A stretch of DNA of 64,000 nucleotides from an uncultured Bacilli bacterium (GCA_934101595.1 CAKORR010000003.1:36479-100478); one strand, 5' to 3'. Counted from the stretch's first letter, positions 4,519 through 31,678 are shown. Made by a program: numbers and translations. Notes: generated by a model from the letters alone, not told the origin.

Positions 4519-4546
4519 AACAATTATAGCAAAAAATGGAGAGAAT

Positions 4547-5422
4547 ATGAAAAAGAATTATAAAGATTACTTAATAATCATTGGAAGTTTACTATTTTTA
4601 TACTTTTCACTAACTAATAATAAATTAATTAATTCATCAATTATTAATAGTATTAGTCTTTTTATAAAGAAAGTGTTTCCCTCTTTGTTTCCCATGATAA
4701 TGATAAACAATATTTTATTAGATTATAACTTTTCTTATTATATTTCTAAAATATTTAAAGAAAAAGGTATCAAATATTACACTATGTTATTAAGTATAAT
4801 AAGTGGCTCCCCAAGTAACGCCATTATAATAAAAGAACTTTATAAAAATAAGACAATCGATAATGTTATGGCAAATAATTTACTAACCTTCACATATTTT
4901 GCAAGTCCCATATTTCTAATTACTATGTTATCTACGATCTTTAATTATAAAACAACCATTAAATTAATATTAATAACTTACATATCTAATTTTATTATAA
5001 GTATTTTTATACCCTTTAATAAAATTAATCCCAATTTAAAAAAGAATGAAAACCCATCCCTTTCAATATCTATTTCTAAATGTATGAATACTTTATTAAT
5101 GATTTTAGGAACCATCACTTTTTTCATTCTTTTATCAACATTTTTAATAAATATATTTAACTTAGACCCAATTAATCAAGTATTCATAAAGGGATTTTTA
5201 GAACTAACACAAGGTTTAAATGCATTAACAATAATTAACAATATTAAATTAAAAGAGATAATAGCAGTTATGTTTATTTCCTTTGGTGGTTTATCAATAC
5301 ACATGCAAATAAAAAGTATCTTAAAAGATACTAATTTATCATATAAATACTTTTTATTTGGCAGGCTATTATCAATGATTATTAGTGTATTAATAACTAT
5401 AACTAGATCTAGCCTTTTCTAA
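4547..5422 (+). CDS. ylbJ: sporulation integral membrane protein YlbJ (nucleoside-recognition/Gate domain)
   Basis: ATG at 4547 with GGAGAG RBS. SLFIKKVFPSLFPM, MNTLLMILGTITFFILLSTFL and FISFGGLSIHMQ align to B. subtilis YlbJ motifs. Confidence 0.75.
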   Translation: MKKNYKDYLIIIGSLLFLYFSLTNNKLINSSIINSISLFIKKVFPSLFPMIMINNILLDYNFSYYISKIFKEKGIKYYTMLLSIISGSPSNAIIIKELYKNKTIDNVMANNLLTFTYFASPIFLITMLSTIFNYKTTIKLILITYISNFIISIFIPFNKINPNLKKNENPSLSISISKCMNTLLMILGTITFFILLSTFLINIFNLDPINQVFIKGFLELTQGLNALTIINNIKLKEIIAVMFISFGGLSIHMQIKSILKDTNLSYKYFLFGRLLSMIISVLITITRSSLF

Positions 5423-6241
5423 AGCAGTTCTGAAGTCGCTTGAATCACAGTTATTTTCGGGAATTATATCATAAATTCCATTTTTATCACAATTTTCCTT
5501 AAGTCGATATAATGGTTCACTGCCTAACGTATATTGCTCTTCACAAGTACCACCGTAAACTATGGCTTTGATGCTTGAAATTCTAAATGGAATTTCAATC
5601 ACACCAGCAATTTGGCTGTCTTTATTTATAATATAATATTTTCTAATGATTTGAATATCATTATTATTTTCTCGAATCGCTGAACTGCATCCCATAATTT
5701 TTTTTGTATTTTCAAACTTCCAAGTGTTCATTGTAGAAGTAGAATCTGTAGAAATATGATCATACCCATTTCTTTCATAAATATAATGATCACTAATATG
5801 AGCATTTTTCAATTGGATTATGCCACTATTATATGTTTTAATAATTATTCCATTACAATCTAATCTATCGCATTTATCCTTTATTAACAAAGGGCTCTGT
5901 TCAGATTTAGGCTCATGAATCCCATATGCAAATGCATCTTCTATCCGTCTATTTTCAATTGTGCTGCCGCCAAAGCCTTCTGCAAGTACTACGGAAGCAT
6001 TTCCGCCATTTTTAGAAAGAGCATTTATTTTGTTGATATAATCAGTAACCGTGTATTCTATTTCTTGAATTTTCATATAATTTGAGTACTTTGTATCTAT
6101 TTTTTTCTTTTGAAATTTAACATCACTGATCAATCTATACATAAAAACCATAACACCAGTTAAAAGAACAACTGAGACAAGTAATTCGACTAATGTCATT
6201 CCTTTATTATTTACTTTATTCAACGGATGAACAGCCTCCAT
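5390..6241 (-). CDS. type IV prepilin-like protein (minor pilin/pseudopilin candidate)
   Basis: Leader MEAVHPLNKVNNKG followed by MTLVELLVSVVLLTGV: a class III signal with G(-1) and E(+5). Start is uncertain; alternative ATGs are at 6304 and 6262. Confidence 0.6.
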   Translation of the reverse strand: MEAVHPLNKVNNKGMTLVELLVSVVLLTGVMVFMYRLISDVKFQKKKIDTKYSNYMKIQEIEYTVTDYINKINALSKNGGNASVVLAEGFGGSTIENRRIEDAFAYGIHEPKSEQSPLLIKDKCDRLDCNGIIIKTYNSGIIQLKNAHISDHYIYERNGYDHISTDSTSTMNTWKFENTKKIMGCSSAIRENNNDIQIIRKYYIINKDSQIAGVIEIPFRISSIKAIVYGGTCEEQYTLGSEPLYRLKENCDKNGIYDIIPENNCDSSDFRTALEKARSSYSY

Positions 6242-7820
6242 TCCCTCTAACTTTAATTGCATAAGGTGATGATTTAGAACCGTTTCCCGAACATAGTACA
6301 ACATCTTCTTTCAAATTAATTACTGGCCTTACACCATATGATAAATCCCCAGCAACAATCTTAAGTTCACCATTATTAGTTACTGCAAAATAATATGGTG
6401 CCATTTTTGTTCCACCGCCACTAAGTTTCGAGTCCTTTGTTTCAACAAATCCGGCTAAAAACTTATGTGCTGTTGTGTCATTAAAACCATTCATATCTGC
6501 CATCCCCTGCGTCATTGTCCAAAAACTATCTTGTGTTGTTATATTATCGCTAATTTTCTTCTCAGCATTAAATAGATAGAATTCTTTGTTAGCTTTTCCC
6601 GCAACTGCACCAGCCATAGCAACTTCGTCAGCTGATATTGTTCCCACTGGGTATTTTAATGATTTGTTTCCTTTATTGGTTGTAGCATTTTTGAATTCAT
6701 TATCGTCAGTAATATTATTGGTATTGCTTCCATATGAATAACAACTTAAATTATAAATTGAGTTTTCTTTAAAAATTGCAGCATCTGCGGAGCTCTCACA
6801 TTTAAGAGTTGGTTTTACAATACTAGAACCATTATTATTGTTATAATATAATAATCTACCAATGCCTTTATAATACCTTTGACCCCACTTAAATACGGCT
6901 AATTCATATTTTCTTTGTAGTTTCTTAAAAAAACTATCTTCATCCACATTTGAAATAAAATTTCCAAGCTCAAAATCATCGTTCTTACATCCATTATCAG
7001 CAGCTTTATCACACTCGTTAATAATGTTTTTATCTCCAACGAATAAGCTTCCCTCTTTTACGAAATCTTTCGGAGAATATGTTTCACCATTGGATAGCAC
7101 AAAATTTCCTTTTATTACTCTTTCATAAAAACGATCAGCCTTATTCTTAACTAAAGAATCATGATTATTAAGATATTTATTAATTCCAAAATTATTTCCC
7201 AAATCTCCTTTACCTTTTGCATACATGTAACCCATTTTAGAAGGATTCATATTAGTAAAATCATCTAAATATGTTGTGTAACAAGCATAACTATTGCAAA
7301 TACTTGTATCGTACCCTTCTAATATATCTTTTGAATATAATGAAGTGTTTAATATGATTCTTATGCTACCGTCTCCATTTATTCTTATAATACGCCATAA
7401 TCTTCCAGCAAAAACAACATAATTATCATCTTCAGCTCCACGATAATAGTAACTATTCCCAAGATCATCTACAGCCATAAACATTCCTTCCTCTGTTGTG
7501 GCCACCTCTAAAAAATCAGGCTTTTCTCTTTTGTTTAAAGCTTTTTTTATTTCTTCGATATCAAAGCTAACATCTTTAAATGTATCTCCGTATTTTGAAT
7601 TACCAGTTTTATATTCCTTATACTCAGCTTTTAAAAGACAATCTTTGAGAGTATCACCAACAGTGCAGTCGTACGCCATTGGATCTGGTATATTTGCAGT
7701 GTACCTCTTTTTCAAATAATATTTATTAGTTAATGACATAAGTGTTGCTATCATTAATAGAATAAATACTATAAAAAAACTATATATCATTGAAGTTGAA
7801 ATAAATCCATTTTTTTTCAT
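6216..7820 (-). CDS. large (534 aa) pilin-like secreted protein; minor pilin lacking Glu5 (GspK/ComGG-like position)
   Basis: N-terminus MKKNG followed by FISTSMIYSFFIVFILLMIA: a prepilin-like KKNG motif and hydrophobic segment with Ser at +5. Co-oriented and overlapping with flanking pilin genes. Confidence 0.5.
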   Translation of the reverse strand: MKKNGFISTSMIYSFFIVFILLMIATLMSLTNKYYLKKRYTANIPDPMAYDCTVGDTLKDCLLKAEYKEYKTGNSKYGDTFKDVSFDIEEIKKALNKREKPDFLEVATTEEGMFMAVDDLGNSYYYRGAEDDNYVVFAGRLWRIIRINGDGSIRIILNTSLYSKDILEGYDTSICNSYACYTTYLDDFTNMNPSKMGYMYAKGKGDLGNNFGINKYLNNHDSLVKNKADRFYERVIKGNFVLSNGETYSPKDFVKEGSLFVGDKNIINECDKAADNGCKNDDFELGNFISNVDEDSFFKKLQRKYELAVFKWGQRYYKGIGRLLYYNNNNGSSIVKPTLKCESSADAAIFKENSIYNLSCYSYGSNTNNITDDNEFKNATTNKGNKSLKYPVGTISADEVAMAGAVAGKANKEFYLFNAEKKISDNITTQDSFWTMTQGMADMNGFNDTTAHKFLAGFVETKDSKLSGGGTKMAPYYFAVTNNGELKIVAGDLSYGVRPVINLKEDVVLCSGNGSKSSPYAIKVRGNGGCSSVE

Positions 7821-7835
7821 GACTCACCTCATTTA

Positions 7836-8339
7836 TTATTTTTTTGGACACTCTAAAGTAGCCATTGTTTCTGTACCAGTAATTTTTTCTTTAAAATATG
7901 CAATAAACAAATAACGTTCTTTATCAGAGCAGCTTTTTATTTCGTCTTTATAACCATATTGATTTTTACATGTAATTACTTTTAAAGATTCTAGATTATT
8001 TATATTTTTAATTGTCGGATCAAGATTGATTGTTCCTTCTTTATTGTGCCACTCATTTCCTATAGGACCAGTTTTATTATATGTTTTAGTTATTAATTTC
8101 TTACCTAAATATGTCCCCTCGCCATATTCGCAACTAAAACCATCTACGTTTTCAAAAAGGTAATTTCTAATATTAATTATTTTTATTTCATCACTAACAC
8201 CTGTACTGTCTAATCTTCGTTCTTGAACGCCAATAGATGAAGTATATCCTTTATAAACCGAAAGCAATCCAATCATTAAAATTGCACACATTACAATAGT
8301 TTCAACAAAAGAAAAGCCCTTTTTACTCAGCATTAACAC
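7836..8339 (-). CDS. type IV prepilin-like pseudopilin
   Basis: MLMLSKKG followed by FSFVETIVMCAILMIGLL: a canonical G/FxxxE prepilin motif. Confidence 0.7.
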   Translation of the reverse strand: MLMLSKKGFSFVETIVMCAILMIGLLSVYKGYTSSIGVQERRLDSTGVSDEIKIINIRNYLFENVDGFSCEYGEGTYLGKKLITKTYNKTGPIGNEWHNKEGTINLDPTIKNINNLESLKVITCKNQYGYKDEIKSCSDKERYLFIAYFKEKITGTETMATLECPKK

Positions 8340-8818
8340 ACATCTCCTCCCGCTGCATTAAAAGCTTTTGCACTTCTTGCACCTGTGATTTTATTAATTG
8401 ATAAAACAATCCTTATACGCAAATATTCATTTGTTATTGGATTTTTAAATTCCTCACATTCACATTTATGTATTTGACTTTTAGTATCCCACGTATATGC
8501 ACTTTTTTGAGCTATTAAATTACATATACTCATAACATCATTATTCAAAAAGTTTATACTAGGTTTATAAAAAAAAGTTATGTCATAGGTTGTTTCTTCT
8601 GAATTACTTCCAGATGTTGGTGAGATATCATAAAATGCCTTTGGATTTTCATTCGCATATTCAATAGCTTTTTGTTCTATATATGCTACTTTTCTTTTGC
8701 ATTCTCTAACTTTGTTGTCTTTAATAACCTTAGAGTAAGATACTACCGCTATAGAAGAAATAATACCTAATACAGCTATTACAGCTAATAATTCAACTAA
8801 AGTAAAGCCCTTCTTCAT
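8333..8818 (-). CDS. type IV major pilin-like protein (PilA/ComGC-type)
   Basis: MKKG followed by FTLVELLAVIAVLGIISSIAV: a textbook N-methylation/prepilin motif. First gene of the pilin operon. Confidence 0.8.
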   Translation of the reverse strand: MKKGFTLVELLAVIAVLGIISSIAVVSYSKVIKDNKVRECKRKVAYIEQKAIEYANENPKAFYDISPTSGSNSEETTYDITFFYKPSINFLNNDVMSICNLIAQKSAYTWDTKSQIHKCECEEFKNPITNEYLRIRIVLSINKITGARSAKAFNAAGGDVC

Positions 8819-8872
8819 TTTACTCCTACTTTCCTAATATAACTTTAACATATTAATACTATTTTGTCCATT

Positions 8873-8896
8873 TAAAAAAGCCTATAAATAGGCTTA
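8873..8896 (-). terminator. rho-independent terminator after ysxE-like gene
   Basis: Hairpin AAGCCTAT..ATAGGCTT followed by T6 on the minus strand. Confidence 0.5.
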
Positions 8897-9093
8897 TCAA
8901 ATATACAAAAAAACATTTTATACATAATTTATAATAGGTGACTAAGATGAGACTAAGAGGTTGTAATAATGGTGGCTTTTTCACCATAGCAGGAATACTT
9001 TTCCTAAGTGTATTAATATTTTATCAAACACTTATAACTTTAATCTTTCCGTTTAGATTTAATATATTTATTTTATTAATTGAAGTGAGTTTA

Positions 9094-9987
9094 TTATTCT
9101 TCCTCTTCTTTAGAATAATATGGCCTCACTAATTCTTCTGTCTTAAATATATAGTCTAAATCGCATCTAATATTTTTACAATTTATAAAAACACTATCTT
9201 TAAACTCAATCTTGGGTGGTAGAGATATAACTATGAAAAATAGTTTTAATTCTGCCTCTGAAAGAGGATACTTTTTTAAGTATTCTTTTAGCAAAACAGA
9301 AAAATCATAATTAAAATATTCTTTCTTATAGAAATTTACTATATCTAGAATGGGAGTGTCTATTCTAGATTTATCCCAACTAATTAGATAATCTTTTTCA
9401 CCTTTAATAAAATGATCTGTTTCTAGATTATTATGAATTAAGCTTACCCTCTGCTTAGTTTCATCTTTCACCAAATCATACCAGTCATCTAAATTGTCTT
9501 GGCAAAACTTTAAAGCCAAAAATATTTTATAAGCATTTCTCATGAATAAGTACTTATCTGGACTTAGAGTACTTTCCATAAATAATGCTTCGTATGTATT
9601 ATTATAATATTCATTTAAATAATTAATGTTACTAATAATATTCTCATAAATTTCTTGATACTTGTCTTTGCTTACTTCTTTAAAATAACTGGTCTTATTA
9701 TGTAGTAAGCTAACAACATCTATTAAATCACTTGCTTTTTGTTCTCTAGGCATATCAGTATCTTTTATATATTCAAATACATTCACACTTCTTCTTGAAT
9801 GGTCTATTAACTTTGGAAAATAATTAAAATTTCTACTTTCTAAATATGAATACAATTCTTTTAAATCTTTTGTCTTTTCTTTTAAAACAAAGTCACCACT
9901 AGTCGTTTCAAGAATAGTAGCGTGACCTTTTATTGTATATTTAAGGGGCTTATAAATATCTTTTAGAACATCGAGACTTTTAGTCAT
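9094..9987 (-). CDS. ysxE: CotS-family spore coat protein (YsxE-like, kinase-like fold)
   Basis: 297 aa CotS/phosphotransferase-like protein immediately downstream of spoVID and overlapping its stop, as in the B. subtilis spoVID-ysxE operon. Confidence 0.6.
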   Translation of the reverse strand: MTKSLDVLKDIYKPLKYTIKGHATILETTSGDFVLKEKTKDLKELYSYLESRNFNYFPKLIDHSRRSVNVFEYIKDTDMPREQKASDLIDVVSLLHNKTSYFKEVSKDKYQEIYENIISNINYLNEYYNNTYEALFMESTLSPDKYLFMRNAYKIFLALKFCQDNLDDWYDLVKDETKQRVSLIHNNLETDHFIKGEKDYLISWDKSRIDTPILDIVNFYKKEYFNYDFSVLLKEYLKKYPLSEAELKLFFIVISLPPKIEFKDSVFINCKNIRCDLDYIFKTEELVRPYYSKEEEE

Positions 9988-19753: not shown

Positions 19754-20677
19754 TTAAAATTTATGACCACACATGAAGCACATAGCGTCACTTGCATTTA
19801 CCTTTGTTCCACATTGTGGGCAAAACTTTGTAGCTTCGGTATTAACTGGCTCGTTTGAAACTGGCGCTTCAACACTTTGGGTATTAACTACCGGCGTAGG
19901 ATTATCCTCTACTGGAGTTTCAATAGGCATCACACTTGGTGCTTGATTTTCTAATGCAGGTTGGTTAACATTCTCATTATTATTAGCCGGAAGAGAGTTT
20001 CCAACAGTACCACTGAAATTATTTGGTGTTACGCTACCACTAAAGTTGTTAGGTGTAACATTAAAACCAGATTCATTGTTAGTATTCATGCCAGGTGCAT
20101 TTAAATTATCACTTGATAATTCTGGTGCTGCAACACTAGCCCCAACTCCAGCGTTCACTTCATTAACTACTCCATTATTTAGGCCATTTTCATTTGTGAC
20201 AACATTTGAAGTATTAACAGTATTAGCATTAGTTGTATTAGCTACATTATTAACGTTGTTAGCATTTATATCACTATCCGAAAGATTACTATTATAAGTT
20301 GCTTTACCAAATGCTAATATTGGGTACATTACATAAGGGAACAATAACATTAAGATAGCCCCTTCAATGCCTTTTCCGAATTTTTTATTCAACTCTATAA
20401 TTGATTTTATTAAAGGATATATTTGTACTATTGGCACAAAACAAAGAATAAACATTCCAATACTCAAACCAGATATTTGTGTAACTAAAATATACAAATT
20501 ATAAACTGGGACAATTGCTTTCCAACCATCTTGATTAGCCTTAGTGAAAATCTTCCATAAACAAACAACCATAAATACCGCTACAGCAACGCTAAATATC
20601 ATCATACCACCTAGTGCAGCAAAAGATGTCCCTAATGCTGTACTAGCAGCGCCATAATCATAATCCATTCCATACAT
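19754..20677 (-). CDS. membrane protein with Asn-rich linker and C-terminal zinc ribbon
   Basis: 4 TM helices, low-complexity N/T/V-rich region with TPNNFSG repeats, C-terminal CPQCGTKV...CFMCG. Confidence 0.4.
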   Translation of the reverse strand: MYGMDYDYGAASTALGTSFAALGGMMIFSVAVAVFMVVCLWKIFTKANQDGWKAIVPVYNLYILVTQISGLSIGMFILCFVPIVQIYPLIKSIIELNKKFGKGIEGAILMLLFPYVMYPILAFGKATYNSNLSDSDINANNVNNVANTTNANTVNTSNVVTNENGLNNGVVNEVNAGVGASVAAPELSSDNLNAPGMNTNNESGFNVTPNNFSGSVTPNNFSGTVGNSLPANNNENVNQPALENQAPSVMPIETPVEDNPTPVVNTQSVEAPVSNEPVNTEATKFCPQCGTKVNASDAMCFMCGHKF

Positions 20678-20689
20678 ATATCATCACTC

Positions 20690-21163
20690 CTATAAATACA
20701 TTTTTACAAGGATAATAATTGCGATTATTGCTAATATAAACAATATTATCCTTGCCATATTAAATTTAGGATTAACATTGATAAACTCACTTACTTCTTT
20801 AACTTCTTTATTTTCTTCATTAATCCTTTTAATTCTTTCATTTAATGAAACATTTAAAGACTCATCTATTATTTTTTGTTCTTTTTTTACGTTCTTTTTT
20901 TCTTTTTTCGGTTTTGCTTCTTTATGATTTTTTCCCTTAGGCGTATTTGTCTCAGTAACATTAGGTAAAACTTCTAATGTATCTATTTTTTCTTCTGGTA
21001 AAGAAGTTTTAGGAATTACTTCTTTCTCTTCCTCTTTTAAATTATTTTCTTCTTCTTTTTTTTCAATTAAGATTTCTTCTTCTGGTGCCTTTAGCGGTTT
21101 ATCAATTTTATTCTCAACACTACGTCTAGGAATAAAGAAACGTGGCTTTTTTTCTTCACTCAT
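20690..21163 (-). CDS. Lys/Glu-rich protein with C-terminal membrane anchor
   Basis: 157 aa with charged low-complexity region then TM (ARIILFILAIIAIIILV). Confidence 0.35.
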   Translation of the reverse strand: MSEEKKPRFFIPRRSVENKIDKPLKAPEEEILIEKKEEENNLKEEEKEVIPKTSLPEEKIDTLEVLPNVTETNTPKGKNHKEAKPKKEKKNVKKEQKIIDESLNVSLNERIKRINEENKEVKEVSEFINVNPKFNMARIILFILAIIAIIILVKMYL

Positions 21164-21179
21164 ATGGCACCTCCATTAT

Positions 21180-22364
21180 TTATTCAACTTTTGTTCCGCA
21201 TTCACCACAGAATTTGCCACTAACTGGTTTTCCACAGTTTGTACAAAATTTAGGTTTTACTTCGGTATCACCAGATACTTGAGCAGCTACAACCGTAGCA
21301 TTTTCCATTGCTCCTTCTGCACTTGGTGTTACAGGAGTTTCTGATTGCATATTGCTTACAGTATTTAGCATACTATTTCCTTGCATTTGGCTCATGCCCA
21401 TTCCCATGAATCCCATCATAGCTCCATTTGGATTTCCAGCAGCACTTTTCATAGCTTCAGCACTAGCAGCAGCCATAGTTCCAGCCATGTTATTACTGTA
21501 TGCTTGACCCATACGAGTAGTTTTAGCTATATCAGCATCCATTTCTTGAATTAATTTTCTTGATGCTTCTGATGCATTTATTCTTAAAGCAACATCTGCT
21601 ACAACAATACCATATTTTTTGTACCAATCTTCATTTAAAAGTTCATTCATTTGATCAGTTACATCTGACTTATATGCTTGAATTCTGTTAAATGAAATAT
21701 TGTTTTTAAGCATAATATTAGAAATACCTTCACTAATCTTTTGAGCAAATCTGCTTTTTAAAATATTTTGACTACCTTCAGTTGTAAAAATATCATCAAA
21801 TGTTAGTGTATCATCAGGATGAGCTCCAACCATTTCATTTATTAAAATAACTGGATCCTCAACTTTGATACTAAATTCACCATTATAAGTTATTTCAACG
21901 CTTCCATACATAGGATCAAAAACAGTTTCAGGTTGACTTGATCCGAATGTACATGCAGGTATAGTTTTGATATTAACATAATATACTCTTTGATCCTTTG
22001 CTGTTTGTCCTCCAAAAGTTATACGTGAACCAATGGTTTTAATTGTATCAATTATGCCTTTTCCTAATCCACCAGTAAAGATACTAGGTTCTGATGAAGT
22101 ATCCCAAGTGAATGTTCCTGGCTCAGCAGTAAATTCTACAATTTTACCATTATCAACAATCATCATAGCCATACCTTGAGGAACAGCTATTGTACTTCCA
22201 TTAGAAATTACGCCTTCCGTAGCGTGCTTATTTCCTTCCCCATGATTTACAACTCCACGTTGAATAATCACGTTATTTTCAACTTGTGGACATTCCACAA
22301 ACTCTTTAAATTGATCTCCAAATCCAGAAGATATTGAATTTAGAGCAGCTTTAATTAATCCCAT
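21180..22364 (-). CDS. ydjI: SPFH/band-7 domain protein (YdjI-like, 'virion core protein-like') with C-terminal zinc ribbon
   Basis: Starts MGLIKAA..., SPFH-like core, Met/Gly-rich segment, C-terminal CTNCGKPVSGKFCGECG. Confidence 0.7.
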   Translation of the reverse strand: MGLIKAALNSISSGFGDQFKEFVECPQVENNVIIQRGVVNHGEGNKHATEGVISNGSTIAVPQGMAMMIVDNGKIVEFTAEPGTFTWDTSSEPSIFTGGLGKGIIDTIKTIGSRITFGGQTAKDQRVYYVNIKTIPACTFGSSQPETVFDPMYGSVEITYNGEFSIKVEDPVILINEMVGAHPDDTLTFDDIFTTEGSQNILKSRFAQKISEGISNIMLKNNISFNRIQAYKSDVTDQMNELLNEDWYKKYGIVVADVALRINASEASRKLIQEMDADIAKTTRMGQAYSNNMAGTMAAASAEAMKSAAGNPNGAMMGFMGMGMSQMQGNSMLNTVSNMQSETPVTPSAEGAMENATVVAAQVSGDTEVKPKFCTNCGKPVSGKFCGECGTKVE

Positions 22365-22380
22365 ATTTTCCTCTTTCTTT

Positions 22381-23088
22381 CTAATAATCTTTTATATTAT
22401 TTAATGTCCAAACTCTATCAACTAGTTCAGTAATTCCTGTTCCACAATATGTGCAATATTTTGCTCCCAATGTTTTAACAGGGGCTCCACAGTTCGGACA
22501 ATTAAGCCCAAGACTTTTTACATCATCAGACACTTTATCTACATCTATAACATAAATAAATTCAACTTTGTATCTATCTTGTACTTTTTCACCGATTCCA
22601 CCATTTTTTTCTAGCATATACTCTAAACTACTAGAAAACACAATCGTAGCTACTACACCATTTTTAGAATAGCCACTAAGTGATGTTTGATGAAATTTTA
22701 TAGAATTAAAGTGCACATTGTCTTTTTTATTTTTTTTAATCTTGCTGTTAATCCAAGCAATAATTTTGTAATTATAATCTAATCCTTCTGTAGAATTATC
22801 TTCTATCGCTTTTAAACTATCAATAATTAATCTCTCAGCTTCTTTTCTAAAGTAATTTATGTTTGTATCTGGAAAATCACGTGCTAGTTTTTCTTTTAAT
22901 ATTGGCTCCATACTAGAAATAGATTTGGGAGTCTCACTAGCTGTAATTTCACTTTTTTTAATTGCTTCTTTTAAATCACCCGTATTGAAATACTTTTGCA
23001 AAAAATTTTTAAACTTATACTTAAAGTAAAAGAAAAAGAAAACAATTATTATGATAACCATTATCAATAGTATCAATAAATTTTCCAT
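22381..23088 (-). CDS. membrane-anchored zinc-ribbon protein (YdjG/H-like module member)
   Basis: N-terminal TM, C-terminal CPNCGAPV...CTYCG. First gene of the SPFH cluster. Confidence 0.4.
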   Translation of the reverse strand: MENLLILLIMVIIIIVFFFFYFKYKFKNFLQKYFNTGDLKEAIKKSEITASETPKSISSMEPILKEKLARDFPDTNINYFRKEAERLIIDSLKAIEDNSTEGLDYNYKIIAWINSKIKKNKKDNVHFNSIKFHQTSLSGYSKNGVVATIVFSSSLEYMLEKNGGIGEKVQDRYKVEFIYVIDVDKVSDDVKSLGLNCPNCGAPVKTLGAKYCTYCGTGITELVDRVWTLNNIKDY

Positions 23089-24396: not shown

Positions 24397-24903
24397 TTAT
24401 TTAATCCACCCATTACTTACATACTTTGTATCATTAACAATGATAAAGGCATTTTTATCGTATTTAATTATAATATTTTTTAGCTTTTCTAAATAATCTG
24501 ATTTTGTTTGAATGTATAACATTTTTTTATCGTCACCAGTTAATTTTATTTCTGATACACCAAAATTATGCTTTTTGATATTCTTAATTAATTCTTTAGT
24601 ATCTTTTGTTGTAATTATTTCAATGCCTACTATTCCTTTAATAAAATGATCTGATAAAATCATGCCAATATATGACCCTGTTGCGTAACCTAAAGAATAT
24701 GAAATAGGTATTAATATTGTATTTACGTTTGTTGTTAATGCGGTTCTTGCCGCAAAAAACCATATAAAAACTTCAATAAAAGCCAATATCGCATTAATAA
24801 TTTTTTCACCTCGAACCATTATCATAGTTCTAAAGGTACTAATAGAAACATCCAATATTCGTGCACTGAATATTTTAAGGCATAATAAAGCCATAATAAT
24901 CAC
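24397..24903 (-). CDS. UPF0316/DUF2179 family membrane protein
   Basis: Four TM helices followed by DUF2179-like C-domain (GVSEIKLTGDDKKMLYIQTK). Aligns to B. subtilis UPF0316 pattern. Confidence 0.6.
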   Translation of the reverse strand: MIIMALLCLKIFSARILDVSISTFRTMIMVRGEKIINAILAFIEVFIWFFAARTALTTNVNTILIPISYSLGYATGSYIGMILSDHFIKGIVGIEIITTKDTKELIKNIKKHNFGVSEIKLTGDDKKMLYIQTKSDYLEKLKNIIIKYDKNAFIIVNDTKYVSNGWIK

Positions 24904-25038
24904 CTGTATTATTATGGCTTTTATTCTTATAAATATTTACTTATTCGATTTTCTAACGCCTTCAATAATTTCTTGATAAGCCTCAGTATCAATAATCTTT
25001 ATTTTTTTATTAATTCAAAATATAGTTTTCATTAATTA

Positions 25039-25578
25039 TTAGTATCTACTCAATCCACCAATTCTTAAACTCATATTTTCAGTAATGCCACTTGCATATT
25101 GAAAATCGATAATTCCTTCTGAAACATAATAATTTGCTATATCTTTATTAAAATCTCTTACTTGCTCATAGCATCTGTTTAACATTTCTATACTTTCTAG
25201 AGCCTTTTCTTTTTCTATTACTGGTTGGACTATTATCTCCGCACCAGTTTCAAATTTTTTGCTAAGCATTGACTCAGCATATTTAAAACCAGTATTAGAT
25301 ATATATTTTATGTTATCAAATGCTGGATCACTTAATAATTCTGATAATTTAGCATCAGAATCTAAATCATGCCATTTTGACTTTTCTAAATCAGCAAACA
25401 AAATTGCTAATTCTTCTGGTTTTTTTCCGCCAATACTTAAATCAAAATTTAAATAATTATTTTTTAAATACCCCTTGTAAGCTAAACATAATTCATCACT
25501 ATATTTATAATCAATTCCATTTAATACATCATTAATAGTTTTATTATATATTTCTTCTACCATTTTTTCATTATTCAT
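25039..25578 (-). CDS. hypothetical cytoplasmic protein; candidate immunity protein for upstream toxin
   Basis: Immediately downstream of, and co-oriented with, the toxin gene (13-nt gap). No recognisable motif; role assigned by position only. Confidence 0.35.
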   Translation of the reverse strand: MNNEKMVEEIYNKTINDVLNGIDYKYSDELCLAYKGYLKNNYLNFDLSIGGKKPEELAILFADLEKSKWHDLDSDAKLSELLSDPAFDNIKYISNTGFKYAESMLSKKFETGAEIIVQPVIEKEKALESIEMLNRCYEQVRDFNKDIANYYVSEGIIDFQYASGITENMSLRIGGLSRY

Positions 25579-25590
25579 AACTTTCCTCCT

Positions 25591-28500
25591 TTAACTAGTT
25601 ATTACTTTTAACCCGCTAACTATTTTATCAAGATTAGATAAATTTCCCCCTATCGCTTCATCAAAAGCTGGCCCTAACTTGTTTGCAAAAAAATTTGGGA
25701 CTGTGATTTTATCTATGGGATTTGAAATGAGTGATATATCATTATTGATGTATGCACACTTAATTGTTTCGATGTCTAAACCCTCTATATTCATATTTAA
25801 AATTTGCTTCAATCTTCTTACTGCTGGTGTATAACCACAAAATTCTTTAGTTGGATAGGCTTTTCCCATTGCTAATTCATTTAAAAGTTCTGTAACAGTC
25901 TCATTTATGCCTGTGTTACTAATTGAACGACCATTTGAATCACAAATAATCACTCTTAATCCAGCCCTTATGTATGTAATTCCAGTAGACGGGTCAGTAT
26001 AAGCCCGTCTTGCAGAAAGCTGATGTAAACTTTCATGCGATATGGTACTTTTTATAATTTTATCCGAATAAGCTAAACTCATTACACTTTCTCTACCATT
26101 ATTGAAAGCCATCCATCTAGGGTTAGCAGTTGATTTAGCAAATTCTTCAGGTTCTAAAAATATAAACGTACCTTTAAGGTCAGAAAGATCCGATTCACTA
26201 GCTAAAGATGAAAACATCTTTCTAAAGTTATTTATCATAACTGTTTCTGCCCAATCATTAAGGCCCACCGCTCTTGGGGATAAATAAAATTTTTTAATGC
26301 TTTGCATTCTTTCTTGCACTCTGTTAAGTTTAAAATAATATCCATTACTTTTCATCATATCGTCAATTTGCTTTAAGCCATTTGCTATTTCATTTTTCGA
26401 TAAACCTTGAAACAATGTATTCATATTATTCTTAAAATCATATGCAAATGCGTTAAAAATTGATTCTGATTGTATGAGATTTAATAAATATGCTGTAGAA
26501 ACTTTTTTAGATGCATCACTCCTTCTTAATTTAACATCAACTGTTTCTTTTAATCCTCTAACGTATTTTCCTGATAGTATCAATTGTTCTATTTCTAAAT
26601 TATTTACTATGTTATGATAAGTAACACTGTCAATACTTTTATTTGATAATATCTTATTAAGTTGCTCCACATCTAAATTACTTGTTACTATACCCATATT
26701 AGCACTATCTAATTTGCTAATAGCATTAACAAGGGTAGTTTCATCGGCATTGCCAATAATTAATTTTAAATTATCACTATTGTATACATACGTTATTAAT
26801 TTTTCTAAAGTACTAGCATCCATACTTTTTAATGAACTAATAAGCTCATTTTTTTTCAACGATATTACTTCATCGAAATTAACGCCTGGATTATTTTTTC
26901 TTATTGTGACCAATTCTTCAAGGCTATATTTATTAACATAAAGTGTTTCACCTTCTTTTAATCTTATTGCCTCAATTTCTTTAATTCTTTGTGATTTAGC
27001 ATTATTTGTTCCTGTTTTTTCAACAACTTTAGATTTTTGAGGAGCATTATTTGCACCAACTTTATCAACAATTTTAGAGTTTGGTTGGATACCGCTAGCA
27101 CGTTTTCCTTTAACACTTGCTATTCCGCCCATTGCAGCACTAGCTACTGTTGAAGTTGCTTTATTATATCCATTTAAAACAAGAGTCGAAACTAGTGTTT
27201 GAGCAAAAGTATCTCCCATCTCCTCTTTTATATTATTAAATGCTTCGGTGTCTCCCTCAACAAGTGCTTTATAACCTTTATCCAAAAACAACTGCAATTC
27301 TTCTTCGGTTATTTCATTTACAACATTACCAAATAAGCCAAATTTTTGTTCAATAACTGAGAATCCAACACCTGATAAAAATAGTGATGTAACAGATTCG
27401 GATGCCGTTGAGAATACTGCATATTTAAATGCACCATCAAGGCTTTTACCTTCTTCTAAAGATTGATCAAAAGTGTTACCTAGTATTGAAGCACTCATAG
27501 CCACGTTACCAACTATACCACCAATTTTATTATTCTTTGTAAGTGCCGTTACAACAGTTGACAACGTTGCCGGAATTAACATATTACCAATGGATGAGGC
27601 AGTACTATATGTGAAATCCAAGCCAACTTTGTAATCGTCACTCGATAGTGCTTCAATTATGTACATGTTTTCATAATCATCAACATCAACTACAGAATCA
27701 GCAAATACTAAATTATAGTAACCACTTAAGAAATTTTGCAAACCATTTTTTACACCCTCACCAGCTGTTCTAACATAATCAACATTATTATTCTTAAGGC
27801 TGTTTAAAAATTCTAAAGCATTAGCTTCTCCTTCTCTTCGATTTAATTCGTCCTCCAAAAATGATAGATAATCGTCAGCGGCGTCAACTGATACTACTTT
27901 GTGTAAATAATTATACATAGCAATTTCGTCAGGTTCCATGAATAATTTTTGCTTGTCACTTAGATAATCTAGACTTCCATATTTTTCAATACGCCATTCA
28001 TTACCCTTTTCAATCAAAAATTGTTCAACACACGCCTCTTGATTAAAAGCTTTCCATGTTTCGTATGATAACTTGCTTCCAGAATTTTTATAAACGTTTT
28101 CCATGTATTCGCTTATTTCAGCTTCTGTATAATTAAAGCCTTCCAATGCACTTAGGCTATATGTTGCTGATTTTGAAGAAAAATTAATTTGCTTTAATTG
28201 ACCCATATATTCAGCTTTAAATGTTACATATGCATCGCGTTTTTTTTCTAAATCGCTTATTTTTGCGGAAAGGCTTTGCATTTCTGCAAATCTTTTATCA
28301 TCTTGGTTATTTACTTTGTTTTCAAGCATCTTAACCAGTGGCATGGTATCATCATTATTCGCATCATTTTGCTCATTTAGCAATTGTTCATACTGTTCTT
28401 TTAACTTTTTAATTTCACTGTTTAACTCATTTCCTCTAGAATCAATTTCTTTCATGACCTCTTCAATTGTATCATTTATAAATTTATTTCTTTCTTCAGA

Positions 28501-29544
28501 AAGAGTTTGTATTTTATTTTGAAGCTTATTTAGTTTCGCCCTAGTTTCTTCGTCAATATTATCAGATGCCAAAGCAAAATTGCCGCCTAAATTATTAAAT
28601 TCATCTAGTAAATTAAGAAGATCTTCATCATATTTTTCATATTTAGAACGAGTATCATCATCAATTAATTGCCAATCATCTACTCCCAACTCTTTTAAAG
28701 TTTTTTCAAATTCTGGCATATTTTGAAAAACTGCAGTATTAACTGAGTTTTCATAAACTTGTGAATTTCTATCAGAAATATCATTAATTCCTTTAGCAAA
28801 TTCACTTTTGATATAATCTACATTTTCGCTTTTAGCCATAATTTTGTTTAATAAATCTAACAATTTTCCCTGAAGCCAATTAATTATTCGATCCATAAAA
28901 CTTGAATTCTCATCAGAAAGCTCTTTAGTTTCATTGGCACCAGTCTTGCTGTTATCTACACTATCAACTTTTAAGATATTGTCTGCAACAGTTACAAGAT
29001 CATTAGTTTCTACAGCTTTTGTTGTTTCTTCAGTTTTAGAAACTTGGTTTGAAGAAGATGTATCAGTTGGCTTAACTGTTTCAATATTTGTAGTTTTATC
29101 TATTTCTTTTGTGGCTTTACTTACATTCTCTACTTTAACATCATTAGTAGTGTTTTCCTTTTTTACATCAACACTACTTTTTTCTTCTGGCTCACTAGTA
29201 GTATCACCTAAGTATTCAATATTATCAGCCTTATTACTACTTCTCGTGTTAGTTTTTGTTGGTCTATTACTATTCGTATCACGAACGATGCCTCTAATAG
29301 AGTTAACATTTCCTTTTTCGATACCGCCAATAATACTTATAGCGTCACTTATAGATTTGCTAGCTTCACTACTAATTCTTTGAACTTCTTTATATTTTTC
29401 TAAAATATTATTTATGTCACTAGAAAAATCACTAGAAAAAGAATTTCTAGATAAGAAATTTATAATTGCTTGGATTATATTACCAGCTAATCTTAAATCT
29501 GAGGATATAATCTCTTTTAATTTTGACAAATCCACATTAATCAT
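25591..29544 (-). CDS. large (1317 aa) polymorphic toxin-like protein, probable T7SSb substrate, C-terminal HExxH zincin-like domain
   Basis: Follows WXG100, DUF4176-like and small helical genes in one orientation. Helical N-terminus, long coiled-coil middle, Gly-rich hydrophobic segment (aa ~608-700), C-terminal ...ISHESLHQL... at aa 1170-1174. Confidence 0.6.
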   Translation of the reverse strand: MINVDLSKLKEIISSDLRLAGNIIQAIINFLSRNSFSSDFSSDINNILEKYKEVQRISSEASKSISDAISIIGGIEKGNVNSIRGIVRDTNSNRPTKTNTRSSNKADNIEYLGDTTSEPEEKSSVDVKKENTTNDVKVENVSKATKEIDKTTNIETVKPTDTSSSNQVSKTEETTKAVETNDLVTVADNILKVDSVDNSKTGANETKELSDENSSFMDRIINWLQGKLLDLLNKIMAKSENVDYIKSEFAKGINDISDRNSQVYENSVNTAVFQNMPEFEKTLKELGVDDWQLIDDDTRSKYEKYDEDLLNLLDEFNNLGGNFALASDNIDEETRAKLNKLQNKIQTLSEERNKFINDTIEEVMKEIDSRGNELNSEIKKLKEQYEQLLNEQNDANNDDTMPLVKMLENKVNNQDDKRFAEMQSLSAKISDLEKKRDAYVTFKAEYMGQLKQINFSSKSATYSLSALEGFNYTEAEISEYMENVYKNSGSKLSYETWKAFNQEACVEQFLIEKGNEWRIEKYGSLDYLSDKQKLFMEPDEIAMYNYLHKVVSVDAADDYLSFLEDELNRREGEANALEFLNSLKNNNVDYVRTAGEGVKNGLQNFLSGYYNLVFADSVVDVDDYENMYIIEALSSDDYKVGLDFTYSTASSIGNMLIPATLSTVVTALTKNNKIGGIVGNVAMSASILGNTFDQSLEEGKSLDGAFKYAVFSTASESVTSLFLSGVGFSVIEQKFGLFGNVVNEITEEELQLFLDKGYKALVEGDTEAFNNIKEEMGDTFAQTLVSTLVLNGYNKATSTVASAAMGGIASVKGKRASGIQPNSKIVDKVGANNAPQKSKVVEKTGTNNAKSQRIKEIEAIRLKEGETLYVNKYSLEELVTIRKNNPGVNFDEVISLKKNELISSLKSMDASTLEKLITYVYNSDNLKLIIGNADETTLVNAISKLDSANMGIVTSNLDVEQLNKILSNKSIDSVTYHNIVNNLEIEQLILSGKYVRGLKETVDVKLRRSDASKKVSTAYLLNLIQSESIFNAFAYDFKNNMNTLFQGLSKNEIANGLKQIDDMMKSNGYYFKLNRVQERMQSIKKFYLSPRAVGLNDWAETVMINNFRKMFSSLASESDLSDLKGTFIFLEPEEFAKSTANPRWMAFNNGRESVMSLAYSDKIIKSTISHESLHQLSARRAYTDPSTGITYIRAGLRVIICDSNGRSISNTGINETVTELLNELAMGKAYPTKEFCGYTPAVRRLKQILNMNIEGLDIETIKCAYINNDISLISNPIDKITVPNFFANKLGPAFDEAIGGNLSNLDKIVSGLKVITS

Positions 29545-29558
29545 AAAATCACATATTC

Positions 29559-29924
29559 CTAGCTTTCTGCGTTATAATACTCATACTTTAATTGTTCAAT
29601 TCTATTTCTATCATAAGTTATAGTGTTATTATTAGATGATATTTTATTATTAATTTTAGTTATAAGATTATTTGTATCATTCACAGCATCATTAATAATA
29701 GAAATACTATCTGAAACTTTACCCTTATCAGCACTAGATCCATTTATAATATTATTGGAGAGTTTGTCATTAGCTTCAGTAAAATCATCTATGGCATCCT
29801 TGCTTTTATTAAGAATAGTATTTAACATAGTTACATTACGTCCTAATTTATTGTTTTCCCTATTAAGACTATAGATTTCTTTTTGAAGGCGACTAATTTC
29901 ATTAAAAATTTCCGATCTTGTCAT
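29559..29924 (-). CDS. small alpha-helical protein; candidate LXG-associated (Lap/DUF5082-like) adaptor
   Basis: 121 aa predicted all-helical (MTRSEIFNEISRLQKEIYSLNREN...). Sits directly upstream of the toxin. Confidence 0.4.
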   Translation of the reverse strand: MTRSEIFNEISRLQKEIYSLNRENNKLGRNVTMLNTILNKSKDAIDDFTEANDKLSNNIINGSSADKGKVSDSISIINDAVNDTNNLITKINNKISSNNNTITYDRNRIEQLKYEYYNAES

Positions 29925-30178
29925 AATGTCTCCACATCAATACTTTTAGCTATTTCGTTAAATTCTTCATCCATGTATCCCTTATAAAAAACTTTATCAA
30001 TATCTTCACTATTAAACAAAAGATAACTTCTATCGACAGTTATCCCTTCTGGATATTTACAACCGACATAATCGTATTCTTTATCGGTGTTTTTATCTTT
30101 TACGCTATATCCAGTAATCATTATTTTTTTACTAGCATTTTTTAAAATAACCACACTGCCAATTGGTAAAAACAACAT
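29921..30178 (-). CDS. DUF4176-like small protein (T7SS-associated)
   Basis: MLFLPIGSVVILKNASKKIMITGY...YDYVGCKYPEG matches remembered DUF4176 signature. Overlaps next gene by 4 nt. Confidence 0.45.
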   Translation of the reverse strand: MLFLPIGSVVILKNASKKIMITGYSVKDKNTDKEYDYVGCKYPEGITVDRSYLLFNSEDIDKVFYKGYMDEEFNEIAKSIDVETL

Positions 30179-30258
30179 ATAACCACCTCTAGATATTCTT
30201 TTTTAATATTTACAAAAGCACGGTTCCATCGAATGATAGAACCCTGATTTCATAACTA

Positions 30259-30543
30259 TTAAACAATTTTTGATGCTGCAGCGTTTTCGATATCTTCGTA
30301 TCCTTTTTTTACTACATCAATCAAATATTTTCTACAATCATCAATTGCTTCTTTAAATGATTGGAAAGATCTTTGCATGTTTGCATGTGCATCATGCATT
30401 TCTTTAGCAGCTGGTGAATCGTATATAGAATCAACACGATTCATAATTCCTGCTAGTTCACTATTAATTATTTGATCTAATCTAGTAGATGAACTATTCA
30501 ACTCTTCAGCTGCTCTATCACATTCTGCTGAACTAAATTTCAT
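30259..30543 (-). CDS. WXG100-superfamily-like helical hairpin protein (EsxB/Lap-type)
   Basis: 94 aa, two helices around a ...SIYDSPAAKEM... loop; lacks W-x-G but has ESAT-6-like length and architecture. Confidence 0.45.
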   Translation of the reverse strand: MKFSSAECDRAAEELNSSSTRLDQIINSELAGIMNRVDSIYDSPAAKEMHDAHANMQRSFQSFKEAIDDCRKYLIDVVKKGYEDIENAAASKIV

Positions 30544-30560
30544 TATTTTATTCCTTTCTA

Positions 30561-30830
30561 TTATTCATTTTCAAAGTTTTGATAAGCTGAGCCTGTAGCT
30601 TTAATAAGCTCACCAAAGTTCTTTAAGTTTTCACCAAAATCTTCAAATTCTTTACGGCAATTATCCATTTTTGATTTAAAGTTTTGACTCTTTGTACCTG
30701 TCCAACTATTAGATAATTGATCTAATACTTGATATATTTTAGCTATTTGAGTACTATAGTCTTCTGCCTTATTAACAACTTCACCACCTAATTGTTGTAA
30801 TGTTGCAGGATCGTCGCATCTAATATTCAT
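30561..30830 (-). CDS. esxA: WXG100 family protein (EsxA-like)
   Basis: 89 aa with central ...LSNSWTGTKSQNF... WXG motif in a helix-turn-helix. GGGAGGTGA RBS. Confidence 0.7.
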   Translation of the reverse strand: MNIRCDDPATLQQLGGEVVNKAEDYSTQIAKIYQVLDQLSNSWTGTKSQNFKSKMDNCRKEFEDFGENLKNFGELIKATGSAYQNFENE

Positions 30831-30875
30831 AACTTCACCTCCCTTATACTATCTAATAAAATAATAACAAATACA

Positions 30876-30908
30876 AATAAAAATAGCAATTTATTTGCTA
30901 TTTTTTTA
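30876..30908. terminator. terminator separating zinc-ribbon membrane gene from WXG operon
   Basis: AAATAGCAA-TTTA-TTTGCTATTT followed by T7. Confidence 0.55.
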
Positions 30909-30946: not shown

Positions 30947-31678
30947 TTATTTACAAGTAAATCCTACACTTTCTAATTCTTTTTGAAAATCTCTAACATT
31001 ATTTTGATAAGAACTTATATCCAAATCAATAAAATCTTCCGTTAATGAGAAATTATTTTCTTTGAAATTATAAGTGAGAACATAGCTATTATTATTAAGC
31101 TTAGCTTTTACTACCTCATTAAATTTATTCTTTGTTTTAAGGCCTTCAAGCATTGTATTATATAAATCTTTAAATTCTTTCTTATTACTGTCCTTTAATT
31201 TGTTTTTAGTAATGTATGTAAATTCTTTTAAATTATCCTCATCATATTTCATTTTTACTATAATTGTATATAAAGAATTATTTGTTTTATTTTCACTTTT
31301 GCAAGTAATTGTATGAGACTCTTTATTAATAAGAACTATTAACAAAAGAGCTACTAAAACCATTAGAACATATATATATATTATTTTGTCTATTTTTTTA
31401 ATTTTCTTTATTAATTTTTTTAATTCTTTTTTTTCTTCATGAAATTCAATAATTGGTTCTTTTTTTTCTTCTTTTACAGTATTTACTTTTTTAGTGCTTT
31501 TAATTGCTGTCTTTGTGGAAACCTTTTTAGTATCAGCCTTTTTAGTTTCATTAGTAATATCTTGTGAAGTTTTCTTTTTAGTGTTAGCAGTTTTCTTTCT
31601 AACAATTAATTTGGCATTACAAAATTCGCAAGTTTTTGCCCCAGCTTTATTTTCCTTTTTGCATTTTGGACATTTCAT
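30947..31678 (-). CDS. zinc-ribbon / Lys-rich / single-TM protein with extracytoplasmic domain
   Basis: N-terminal CPKCKKEN...CEFCNAKL, KT-rich linker, TM, about 125-aa C-terminal domain. Confidence 0.4.
   Translation of the reverse strand: MKCPKCKKENKAGAKTCEFCNAKLIVRKKTANTKKKTSQDITNETKKADTKKVSTKTAIKSTKKVNTVKEEKKEPIIEFHEEKKELKKLIKKIKKIDKIIYIYVLMVLVALLLIVLINKESHTITCKSENKTNNSLYTIIVKMKYDEDNLKEFTYITKNKLKDSNKKEFKDLYNTMLEGLKTKNKFNEVVKAKLNNNSYVLTYNFKENNFSLTEDFIDLDISSYQNNVRDFQKELESVGFTCK

Follow-up and report, generated by a model that had tools for sequence, protein, structure and literature searches.

A probable type VII-style polymorphic toxin-immunity locus, with no EssC gene nearby, in an uncultured gut Bacilli species

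What is a set of genes resembling the cargo side of a type VII secretion system doing in a stretch of chromosome that encodes no motor to export that cargo? The question is raised by a six-gene island in 64,000 nucleotides (nt) of DNA from an uncultured Bacilli bacterium (GCA_934101595.1, CAKORR010000003.1:36479-100478). We refer to this whole 64-kb stretch as the window; positions are counted from its first letter, and all six open reading frames (ORFs) of the island lie on the minus strand. The original prediction described a type VIIb effector island with helper proteins, a toxin and an immunity candidate, and its core has held up, since the WXG100 and DUF4176 proteins pass their family models, the toxin C-terminus and the immunity gene are swapped between strains, and relatives of the toxin are encoded next to EssC and/or DUF4176. 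We consider it probable that this is a chromosomal type VII-style polymorphic toxin-immunity locus of a low-G+C gut member of the Bacilli, for which we propose EssC-dependent export. The coordinates and lengths of the six ORFs, and the 80-nt gap (30179-30258) between the gene for the 94-amino acid (aa) protein and the DUF4176 gene, are exactly as first given:

30561-30830, minus strand: WXG100 gene, 89 aa (ORF and Pfam match)
30259-30543, minus strand: WXG100-like gene, 94 aa (ORF; sub-threshold Pfam match)
29921-30178, minus strand: DUF4176 gene, 85 aa (ORF and Pfam match)
29559-29924, minus strand: gene for a helical protein of 121 aa (ORF, family-less)
25591-29544, minus strand: toxin gene, 1317 aa (ORF)
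25039-25578, minus strand: immunity candidate gene, 179 aa (ORF)

The packing is compact: the stop codon of the DUF4176 gene overlaps the start of the 121-aa gene, and the toxin gene is flanked by gaps of 14 nt upstream and 12 nt between its own stop and the start of the 179-aa gene.

Comparison between strains bears on what kind of locus this is. The island had been taken for an accessory insertion, but it occupies a fixed site, present in every conspecific contig read (nine distinct places shown, from 23 contigs, all from human-gut metagenomes with Hadza samples among them), and only the toxin from residue 216 onward and the immunity gene vary. The closest relatives of the toxin are similar over their full length at 94-96% identity, while seven further relatives are alike over residues 1-812/831 alone, at 80-90%, and then continue into different C-termini, one of which is a PF03496 domain. 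Three types of cassette are found:

Cassette A: toxin of 1317/1334 aa, ending in the HESxH domain; downstream, 179 aa
Cassette B: toxin of 1636/1645 aa, ending in an ADP-ribosyltransferase (PF03496); downstream, 70 aa and a 320-aa ADP-ribosylglycohydrolase (PF03747)
Cassette C: toxin of 1527-1885 aa, ending in a YHELGH domain; downstream, 78 aa

Cassettes B and C are represented at L002:10001-16119 and L001:10001-15750, and the domain of cassette C is a second HExxH-type (YHELGHC) domain. Repeated internal blocks occur in the toxins of both alternative types and account for their lengths of 1527-1885 aa. Nucleotide identity between the window and strains with another cassette changes abruptly along the island:

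Helper genes, and the toxin over residues 1-215: 97-100%
Residues 216-365 and 431-812 of the toxin: ~86%
Residues 366-430 of the toxin: no alignment possible
Toxin C-terminus (from ~residue 812-830) and on to the end of the immunity gene: no identity
Beyond 25006-25015, starting ~25 nt after the immunity stop codon: ~99%
25016-28899, minus strand: strain-variable cassette, from toxin residue 216 to ~25 nt beyond the immunity stop (from segment identities and BLAST breakpoints)

The BLAST breakpoints against other cassettes fall at 28448, ~27050 and 25006-25015, and the helper genes are conserved at 98-100% between cassette types. The C-terminal domain and the downstream gene or genes are exchanged as a unit within the species, giving the conserved N-terminus, variable C-termini and co-varying downstream immunity gene by which polymorphic toxin systems are recognized. 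The intervening part of the toxin, which we call the carrier trunk, consists of diverged alleles under purifying selection, with a ratio of nonsynonymous to synonymous substitution rates (dN/dS) of 0.18-0.22 over residues 428-812. This value of ~0.2, together with long intact ORFs in many contigs, argues that the toxin gene is functional. In one metagenome-assembled genome (NCBI GCA_977972295.1) the toxin gene is interrupted by a scaffold gap of 100 N (L005:14206-14305); the missing gene call there was considered as a possible pseudogene, a reading ruled out as the N run is an assembly artefact.

The toxin can be divided as follows:

28900-29544, minus strand: residues 1-215, constant and putatively for targeting (97-100% nt identity across cassette types)
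27055-28899, minus strand: residues 216-830, carrier trunk (~86% identity between cassette types)
27145-27987, minus strand: residues ~520-800, glycine-rich all-alpha central domain (328 relatives, AlphaFold)
26833-27048, minus strand: residues 833-904, short linker module (47-56% identity to one or two positions in P0003-P0009)
25591-26502, minus strand: residues ~1015-1317, C-terminal toxin domain (aligned to relatives of 26-60% identity)

The C-terminal ~300 residues are common to a handful of proteins at 26-60% identity, some of them ~900-aa toxins with a different N-terminus, and a search with this domain alone brought in just two extra relatives. Two motifs, HESxH at residues 1170-1174 (26023-26037) and NExxTE at residues 1214-1219 (25888-25905), are invariant in the alignment down to 26% identity. 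In an AlphaFold model of the domain, in which the predicted local distance difference test (pLDDT) score exceeds 90 over most of model residues 90-313, these motifs lie on consecutive long helices that follow a small beta-sheet. Gluzincin metallopeptidases have the thermolysin-type motifs HExxH ... NExxSD, and metallopeptidase toxin domains occur in polymorphic toxin systems. The window domain resembles gluzincins in its invariant HExxH, located on a predicted helix that comes after a small sheet, and in the likewise invariant N-E-x-x-T-E of the long helix that follows, but differs in having no profile or fold match to any peptidase, a His-to-Glu spacing of 40 residues and a beta-hairpin insert. 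We predict that it is a gluzincin-like zinc-dependent hydrolase, probably a peptidase.

The proposal that the 179-aa protein confers immunity has gained support, because its homologs co-occur with the toxin domain and the two are replaced jointly in other strains. P0010, a protein of another organism that shares the window toxin domain, is encoded downstream of a gene for a 1528-aa FtsK_SpoIIIE (EssC-like) protein, with DUF4176 genes and an ADP-ribosyltransferase/glycohydrolase pair as neighbors, and is followed by a 171-aa protein 33% identical to the 179-aa protein (E 2e-27). The sister-species toxin P0016, whose C-terminus is 25% identical to that of the window toxin, has downstream of it a 162-aa protein that is 26% identical to the 179-aa protein (E 2.6e-11). 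The toxin domain and a homolog of the 179-aa protein are therefore found together on three different carriers, which argues for a cognate toxin-immunity pair and makes the 179-aa protein the candidate immunity protein for the C-terminal domain. By sequence, the 179-aa protein has no signal peptide or membrane segment, which suggests that the target of the toxin is cytoplasmic; such a location fits published work in which toxins that depend on DUF4176 are seen as acting in the cytoplasm of the target cell (PMC12478183). The toxin likewise has no signal peptide, strong transmembrane segment or cell-wall anchor detectable by sequence, and as neither protein has a signal peptide or strong transmembrane segment, a Sec route is not expected for either. 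Searches of Pfam and NCBIfam placed none of the 121-, 1317- and 179-aa proteins in a family, and sequence and profile searches of the PDB with the toxin and its two domains returned nothing.

The small proteins encoded upstream also connect the locus to type VII secretion. The 89-aa protein, thought from its SWTG motif to be a WXG100 protein (a reading staked on the Pfam model), passes PF06013 with 47.2 bits against a cutoff of 27.3, over profile positions 5-85/86; SWTG lies at residues 42-45 (W-T-G 43-45) and YQNFE, a YxxxE motif, at residues 83-87. It scores 44.7 against the cutoff of 44.85 for TIGR03930 and weakly matches solved EsxB (E 0.028). The assembly collection lists 168 blocks with exactly this sequence, every context read being the same locus, and a scan of JGI metagenomes with it gave matches from the same species only. 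The 94-aa protein had been called a WXG100-like protein without the tryptophan: it indeed has no Trp (W-x-G) motif and a likeness is detected, but at scores below the family cutoffs, both for WXG100 (20.9 bits, E 4.5e-4, under the cutoff of 27.3) and for the NCBIfam model ESAT6_2 (28.7 bits, E 1.2e-6, cutoff 100). The 85-aa protein is a clear DUF4176 member, as had been suspected, with 95.3 bits to PF13780 (cutoff 25; profile positions 1-70/74) and a match to the solved DUF4176 structure 9dcs_A (E 2.5e-9). Experiments have established that DUF4176 proteins are chaperones (Ltc) of type VIIb toxins, are toxin-specific and bind a disordered amphipathic segment of the toxin (PMC12478183). The 121-aa protein is coiled-coil-like, yields nothing beyond coiled-coil noise in searches of Pfam, NCBIfam, PHROGs and PADLOC, and is a candidate targeting factor or co-secretion partner; neither it nor the 94-aa protein has a solved relative by sequence and profile searches of the PDB. 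Each of the three helical proteins (89, 94 and 121 aa; 3/3) has a Yxxx[DE] motif inside its last 16 residues, YEDIE at residues 82-86 of the 94-aa protein and YYNAE at residues 116-120 of the 121-aa protein, and in the latter two this stands where FxxxD near the C-terminal end is absent. There are precedents in the YxxxD/E type VII export arm and the FxxxD motif of Lap1 (PMC9600955), and the terminal YxxxE of the three proteins, as a sequence pattern, recalls the export arm.

The constant N-terminal part of the toxin (residues 1-215) is made up of a segment of ~85 residues and a low-complexity linker rich in S/T/N/K/E (~86-215). Whatever the cassette type, this part co-segregates with the helper genes, and it finds no match among 148 carrier-family relatives; residues 1-330 are unique to the window species. 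The carrier trunk starts with an amphipathic SSFMDRIINWLQGKLLDLL segment (~214-240), followed by a coiled coil and then the central domain. This segment (SSFMDRIINW...) comes directly after the low-complexity linker, and similar SSFF-type segments are found near the N-termini of P0016, P0018 and P0019. A disordered region downstream of the targeting part is as described for toxins that depend on DUF4176 chaperones (PMC12478183).

An exhaustive HMMER search with residues 1-830 against 1.84 billion representatives found 328 proteins (E<=1e-3), all of them aligned only over residues ~520-800, the central domain, which AlphaFold models as all-alpha (pLDDT 74) and which has many invariant glycines. 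Among 44 carrier relatives, LXG was found in none (0/44), no Pfam family covers the central domain, and some end in TNT, EndoU or transglutaminase domains. We conclude from these searches that the central domain represents a carrier family, absent from Pfam and distributed mostly among uncultured gut Bacilli. Other members of the family occur in the following contexts:

L030: DUF4176 gene immediately upstream of a carrier-family toxin
L031/L032 and L035: carrier-family toxin with EssC, five small genes and DUF4176
L034: carrier-family toxin with EssC and five small genes
L036: carrier-family toxin with an EssC cluster
L033: carrier-family toxin with neither EssC nor DUF4176 within its 9-kb contig

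EssC and/or DUF4176 thus adjoin the carrier toxin at 4/5 other member loci examined (the exception is L033), and on this genomic context the family is genetically tied to type VII secretion. The ATPase at L031 has an FHA domain and three FtsK_SpoIIIE stretches, and its relatives at 41-49% identity bear the NCBI name 'type VII secretion protein EssC [Bacilli bacterium]'.

The site of the island is itself a type VII locus, holding the motor, in two sister species represented by L031 and L035 (RecA and NusA ~93%, IF-2 89% and FtsK ~86% amino-acid identity). Between the zinc-ribbon gene and DUF2179 these have EssC, then 84-, 98/104-, ~253-, 82- and ~200-aa genes, DUF4176, a toxin and immunity; in the window DUF4176 is instead preceded by the WXG100 and 94-aa genes and followed by the 121-aa gene. 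Resemblance to the sister loci extends beyond site and flanks to DUF4176 (58% identity), the carrier (33%), the C-terminal domain (25%) and immunity (26%). In contrast, the EssC loci L031, L035, L029, L034 and L036 have a ~1525-aa EssC (FHA and three FtsK_SpoIIIE domains) with 84-, 98/104-, ~250-, 82- and ~200-aa genes; they lack the WXG100, 94-aa and 121-aa genes of the window, and the toxins of those loci are without the first ~215 residues of the window toxin. More distant relatives (L011/L012, FtsK 61% identical) are island-free, with cotJC and DUF2179 ~370 bp apart and the order rearranged.

From these elements a mechanism can be proposed. The constant residues 1-215 and the small helical proteins would form a pre-secretion complex recognized by an EssC-type ATPase, and the DUF4176 chaperone, by analogy with its characterized homologs, might bind the toxin at a disordered or amphipathic stretch, namely the linker and the SSFMDRIINW... 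helix that follows it, and so stabilize it in the producer. Since the ancestral EssC block of the sister species is absent from this site, the ATPase would have to be encoded outside the 64-kb window. Once exported, the toxin would be carried into the cytoplasm of a neighboring Gram-positive cell by its glycine-rich all-alpha central domain, and there the HESxH...NExxTE domain would act as a zinc-dependent hydrolase, probably a peptidase, which the 179-aa protein would neutralize in the producer and its kin.

Several points weigh against this reading. All of the support for it is computational and none is experimental. The hydrolase assignment comes from motifs only, with no Pfam family, PDB sequence match or Foldseek match (E<1e-3), and the role of the central domain in cell entry is pure inference, that domain having no fold match (a Foldseek search against solved structures in the PDB at E<1e-3 gave none). 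The toxin had been described as LXG-type, a label we abandon: PF04740 gives no match to the whole toxin in Pfam at E<=1, and isolated N-terminal pieces (residues 1-100 and 1-330) match neither LXG nor WXG100 even at E<=10. The expectation of Lap-type helpers fared no better: the models of the Lap families (DUF3130/TIGR04197, DUF3958, DUF5082 and DUF5344; Pfam and NCBIfam, E<=1) hit neither the 94-aa nor the 121-aa protein. Neither the 89-aa protein nor these two has a homolog in any EssC locus fetched. The shared terminal motif is a modest coincidence: Yxxx[DE] would arise by chance in ~7% of cases per protein, as judged by shuffling, and 12% of window ORFs carry it.

The remaining points concern the motor. 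As originally stated, the window has no EssC, EsaA, EssA, EssB or EsaB gene; its largest other ORF is 849 aa and none is EssC-sized. The sister-species EssC block is missing from the same chromosomal site, and a search with the sister EssC found, besides the query's own cluster, only L035 in the range of 65-90% identity, the remaining clusters being at <=62% despite heavy sampling of the window species. Because of this gap in a heavily sampled species, the ancestral EssC was very probably lost from it. A more divergent EssC elsewhere in its genome is possible, and none of the EssC contigs searched could be tied to the window species. The best candidate is the abundant P0186/P0316 EssC cluster (after rpsF-ssb-rpsR), which has a carrier toxin and matching G+C and is neither linked nor excluded; this cluster and that of P0274 lie in other contexts, and there is no overlap between their samples and the ones that contain the window species. 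Similarity in tetranucleotides failed to discriminate, at 0.79 for L036, 0.74-0.76 for the sister species and 0.87 within the same species. A search of species-representative genomes with the toxin trunk found nothing, and as the closest FtsK there is only 53-61% identical, the window species has no close representative among them.

Could the locus have been left behind when its motor was lost? L031 and L035 have EssC and five small genes between the zinc-ribbon gene and DUF4176 where the window has none of them (0), only the L035 EssC falls at 65-90% to the sister EssC despite deep sampling, and no EssC-bearing contig is tied to the window species, all of which would suit an orphaned effector locus that lost the type VII machine with the EssC block and whose toxin-immunity genes are a non-secreted remnant or are kept only for the protection that the immunity gene still gives against the toxins of neighbors. 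We nevertheless find this unlikely, as toxin ORFs of 1317-1885 aa are unbroken in the contigs read (the sole exception being a scaffold gap), the carrier evolves at a dN/dS of ~0.2 alongside helper genes that are 98-100% conserved, three complete toxin-immunity cassettes are maintained, and there has been a gain, of a canonical WXG100 gene that the sister clusters do not have. Moreover, it is common in Bacillus subtilis for toxin loci to lie far from the type VII core. It is quite unlikely, too, that the window species is without any EssC, with the WXG100 pair having replaced the motor, the toxin-immunity module remaining whole, under purifying selection and in active diversification, and the complex being exported or deployed without a canonical EssC ATPase. 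The same absence of EssC could be explained if the toxin left the cell by lysis (of the mother cell or the cell) or through a highly divergent ATPase, with the WXG100 pair and the other helpers merely as stabilizers, and indeed none of the EssC loci examined has a helper set related to the 89-, 94- and 121-aa helpers. Such EssC-independent export appears very improbable, however: WXG100 and DUF4176 proteins are known only from type VII contexts, 4/5 other carrier loci adjoin EssC and/or DUF4176, and the window offers no positive sign of an alternative exporter.

It is scarcely credible, finally, that the large protein is no toxin but has a structural, phage or surface role (as a tape-measure, S-layer protein or adhesin), with small genes unrelated to it. 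It is long, repeat-poor, mostly helical and without a Pfam match, and the small helical proteins give weak tape-measure-like PHROG matches (E ~1e-3), but these are coiled-coil matches. The large protein itself has no PHROG or PADLOC match, no phage genes lie nearby, and it has no signal peptide or cell-wall anchor; furthermore, alleles from the same species end in an ADP-ribosyltransferase toxin domain followed by an ADP-ribosylglycohydrolase, and among distant carrier relatives there are C-termini formed by TNT or EndoU toxin domains. That the 1317-aa protein matches no phage tape-measure family agrees with the original view of it as a secreted toxin, and the PHROG and PADLOC searches ruled out phage and defence-system readings of the locus.

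How does a type VII-style polymorphic toxin locus of this kind compare with those already known? The order of small helical proteins, DUF4176, large polymorphic toxin and immunity is also that of the S. intermedius TelA/TelB loci, with which the window further shares the DUF4176 homolog, a disordered region past the N-terminal targeting part, cytoplasmic immunity and the joint exchange of toxin and immunity. Unlike TelA/TelB, the window DUF4176 protein is a 'small' one (85 aa) in the position reported for 'large' ones (PMC12478183). The window also differs in having a toxin without detectable LXG, helpers that are WXG100, WXG100-like and 121-aa proteins and not DUF3130/DUF3958, one helper gene between DUF4176 and the toxin, and no EssC nearby; its toxin is far larger and includes a carrier of ~600 residues that belongs to an unannotated family. 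A type VIIb toxin without LXG has a counterpart in the nuclease EsaD of S. aureus, which has EsxB, EsxC and EsxD as partners, EsaE as chaperone and EsaG as immunity protein. EsaD lies inside the core ess locus, and its chaperone is not of the DUF4176 family. The similarity to the window is one of organization, with WXG100-type and small helical partners, a dedicated chaperone and downstream immunity; it involves no sequence relationship. A survey of type VII systems from T7SSb to T7SSj found that clusters vary widely and keep an EssC-type ATPase and WXG100 proteins, usually with a small ubiquitin-like protein, and that substrates are accompanied by extra small WXG100-related partners; it contains no mention of DUF4176 or of Erysipelotrichia/Mollicutes-type lineages (Garrett, Higginson and Palmer 2024, PMC11217815). 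Unlike those clusters, the window carries the substrate side only.

New here are the non-LXG carrier family, the unannotated toxin-immunity pair, a small DUF4176 protein in the position of the large type and a helper set rebuilt around a WXG100 pair. The locus extends type VII polymorphic toxins beyond LXG, and the carrier domain provides a handle for finding many unannotated antibacterial toxins in gut metagenomes. Also new, as a candidate toxin-immunity pair, are the HESxH/NExxTE domain and its ~170-180-aa partner, which have no relative that is solved or annotated. Closely related species with and without the EssC motor at one locus also constitute a natural experiment on effector rewiring or motor loss.

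The EssC clusters of related uncultured Bacilli (L031:2571-9904, L035:10001-17324, L034:2747-9959 and L029:1-6284) deserve comment in their own right. In L031, L034 and L035 the layout is compact and conserved, with EssC and an overlapping 84-99-aa gene followed by genes of 98-104, ~250, ~82 and 200-319 aa, and L029 has a similar pattern. By Pfam, no EsaA, EssA or EssB homologs were found in the stretches read of these four clusters, and several of their small proteins have W-x-G or W-N-D motifs yet fail WXG100. The layout may be an undescribed minimal type VII arrangement. In the P0186/P0316 cluster (L036/L039:16319-18187) a 601-622-aa Peptidase_M14 (carboxypeptidase) protein is encoded among the small type VII genes, followed by an 842-aa carrier-family toxin.

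Two hairpins and the gene directly upstream complete the description of the island:

30947-31678, minus strand: gene for a 243-aa protein, directly upstream of the island (zinc-ribbon matches sub-threshold)
30879-30905, minus strand: A-tract, 11-bp hairpin and U-tract (RNA fold -9.6 kcal/mol, z -3.06)
30222-30243, minus strand: G+C-rich hairpin followed by UUUUGU, in the 80-nt gap (-15.3 kcal/mol, z -4.04)

The idea that terminators (30876-30908) bound the island is right for its upstream side only. There the hairpin at 30879-30905, between the 243-aa gene and the WXG100 gene, is likely to be an intrinsic terminator of the upstream gene, and its 3' half is overlapped by a promoter-like TTGCTA-17-TATTAT with an extended TG (30889..30861); 3' of the 179-aa gene, RNA folding revealed no convincing terminator (z -0.45). 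The hairpin at 30222-30243, absent from the original prediction, was also found by a terminator scan and was matched in stability by 0/200 shuffles; it is a candidate partial terminator or attenuator that would split the WXG100 pair from the chaperone and toxin genes. The 243-aa protein begins with a zinc ribbon, which a lysine-rich linker and a single hydrophobic segment separate from a C-terminal domain. Its 45%-identical ortholog in L031 is encoded immediately upstream of EssC, L035 likewise has one, and none was detected in the island-free relatives L011/L012; the protein may travel with the island and belong to the secretion locus.

The flanks are as first described, the island being bordered by DUF5698/DUF2179 (UPF0316) and, at its other end, by cotJB/cotJC. 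The order at the site is recA, a clp-like gene, ftsK, cotJC, cotJB, the 243-aa zinc-ribbon gene, the island, DUF5698/DUF2179 and HD, and the adjacent 738-aa FtsK, with alpha, motor and gamma domains, is a housekeeping translocase. A compositional anomaly was looked for and rejected, as the G+C and skew of the island resemble those of its flanks. Within the toxin, the ~70-residue module at 833-904 (consensus ...EA(I/L)RLK(E/D)GE(T)...NKY.L.EL.TIRKNNPGV...) recurs once or twice in other-cassette toxins just upstream of their toxin domains; judging by this placement, it could be a linker that acts as a recombination junction. Beyond the island, a 14-bp perfect inverted repeat (24887-24921) spans the ribosome-binding site and start codon of DUF2179, whose start is ATG 24894 by comparison with 165-aa orthologs, as opposed to the mechanically listed GTG 24903; the repeat could occlude initiation of DUF2179 translation. 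Further along, ~20 kb (3499-23088) separate the HD-domain gene from rimP-nusA and encode two LRR_5-type proteins, Band_7, DUF5684 and a MiaB-like radical SAM enzyme. With rimP-nusA lying almost directly after the HD gene in L035 and after the DUF2179 gene in L031, this stretch appears to be a species-specific insertion or rearrangement adjoining the island.

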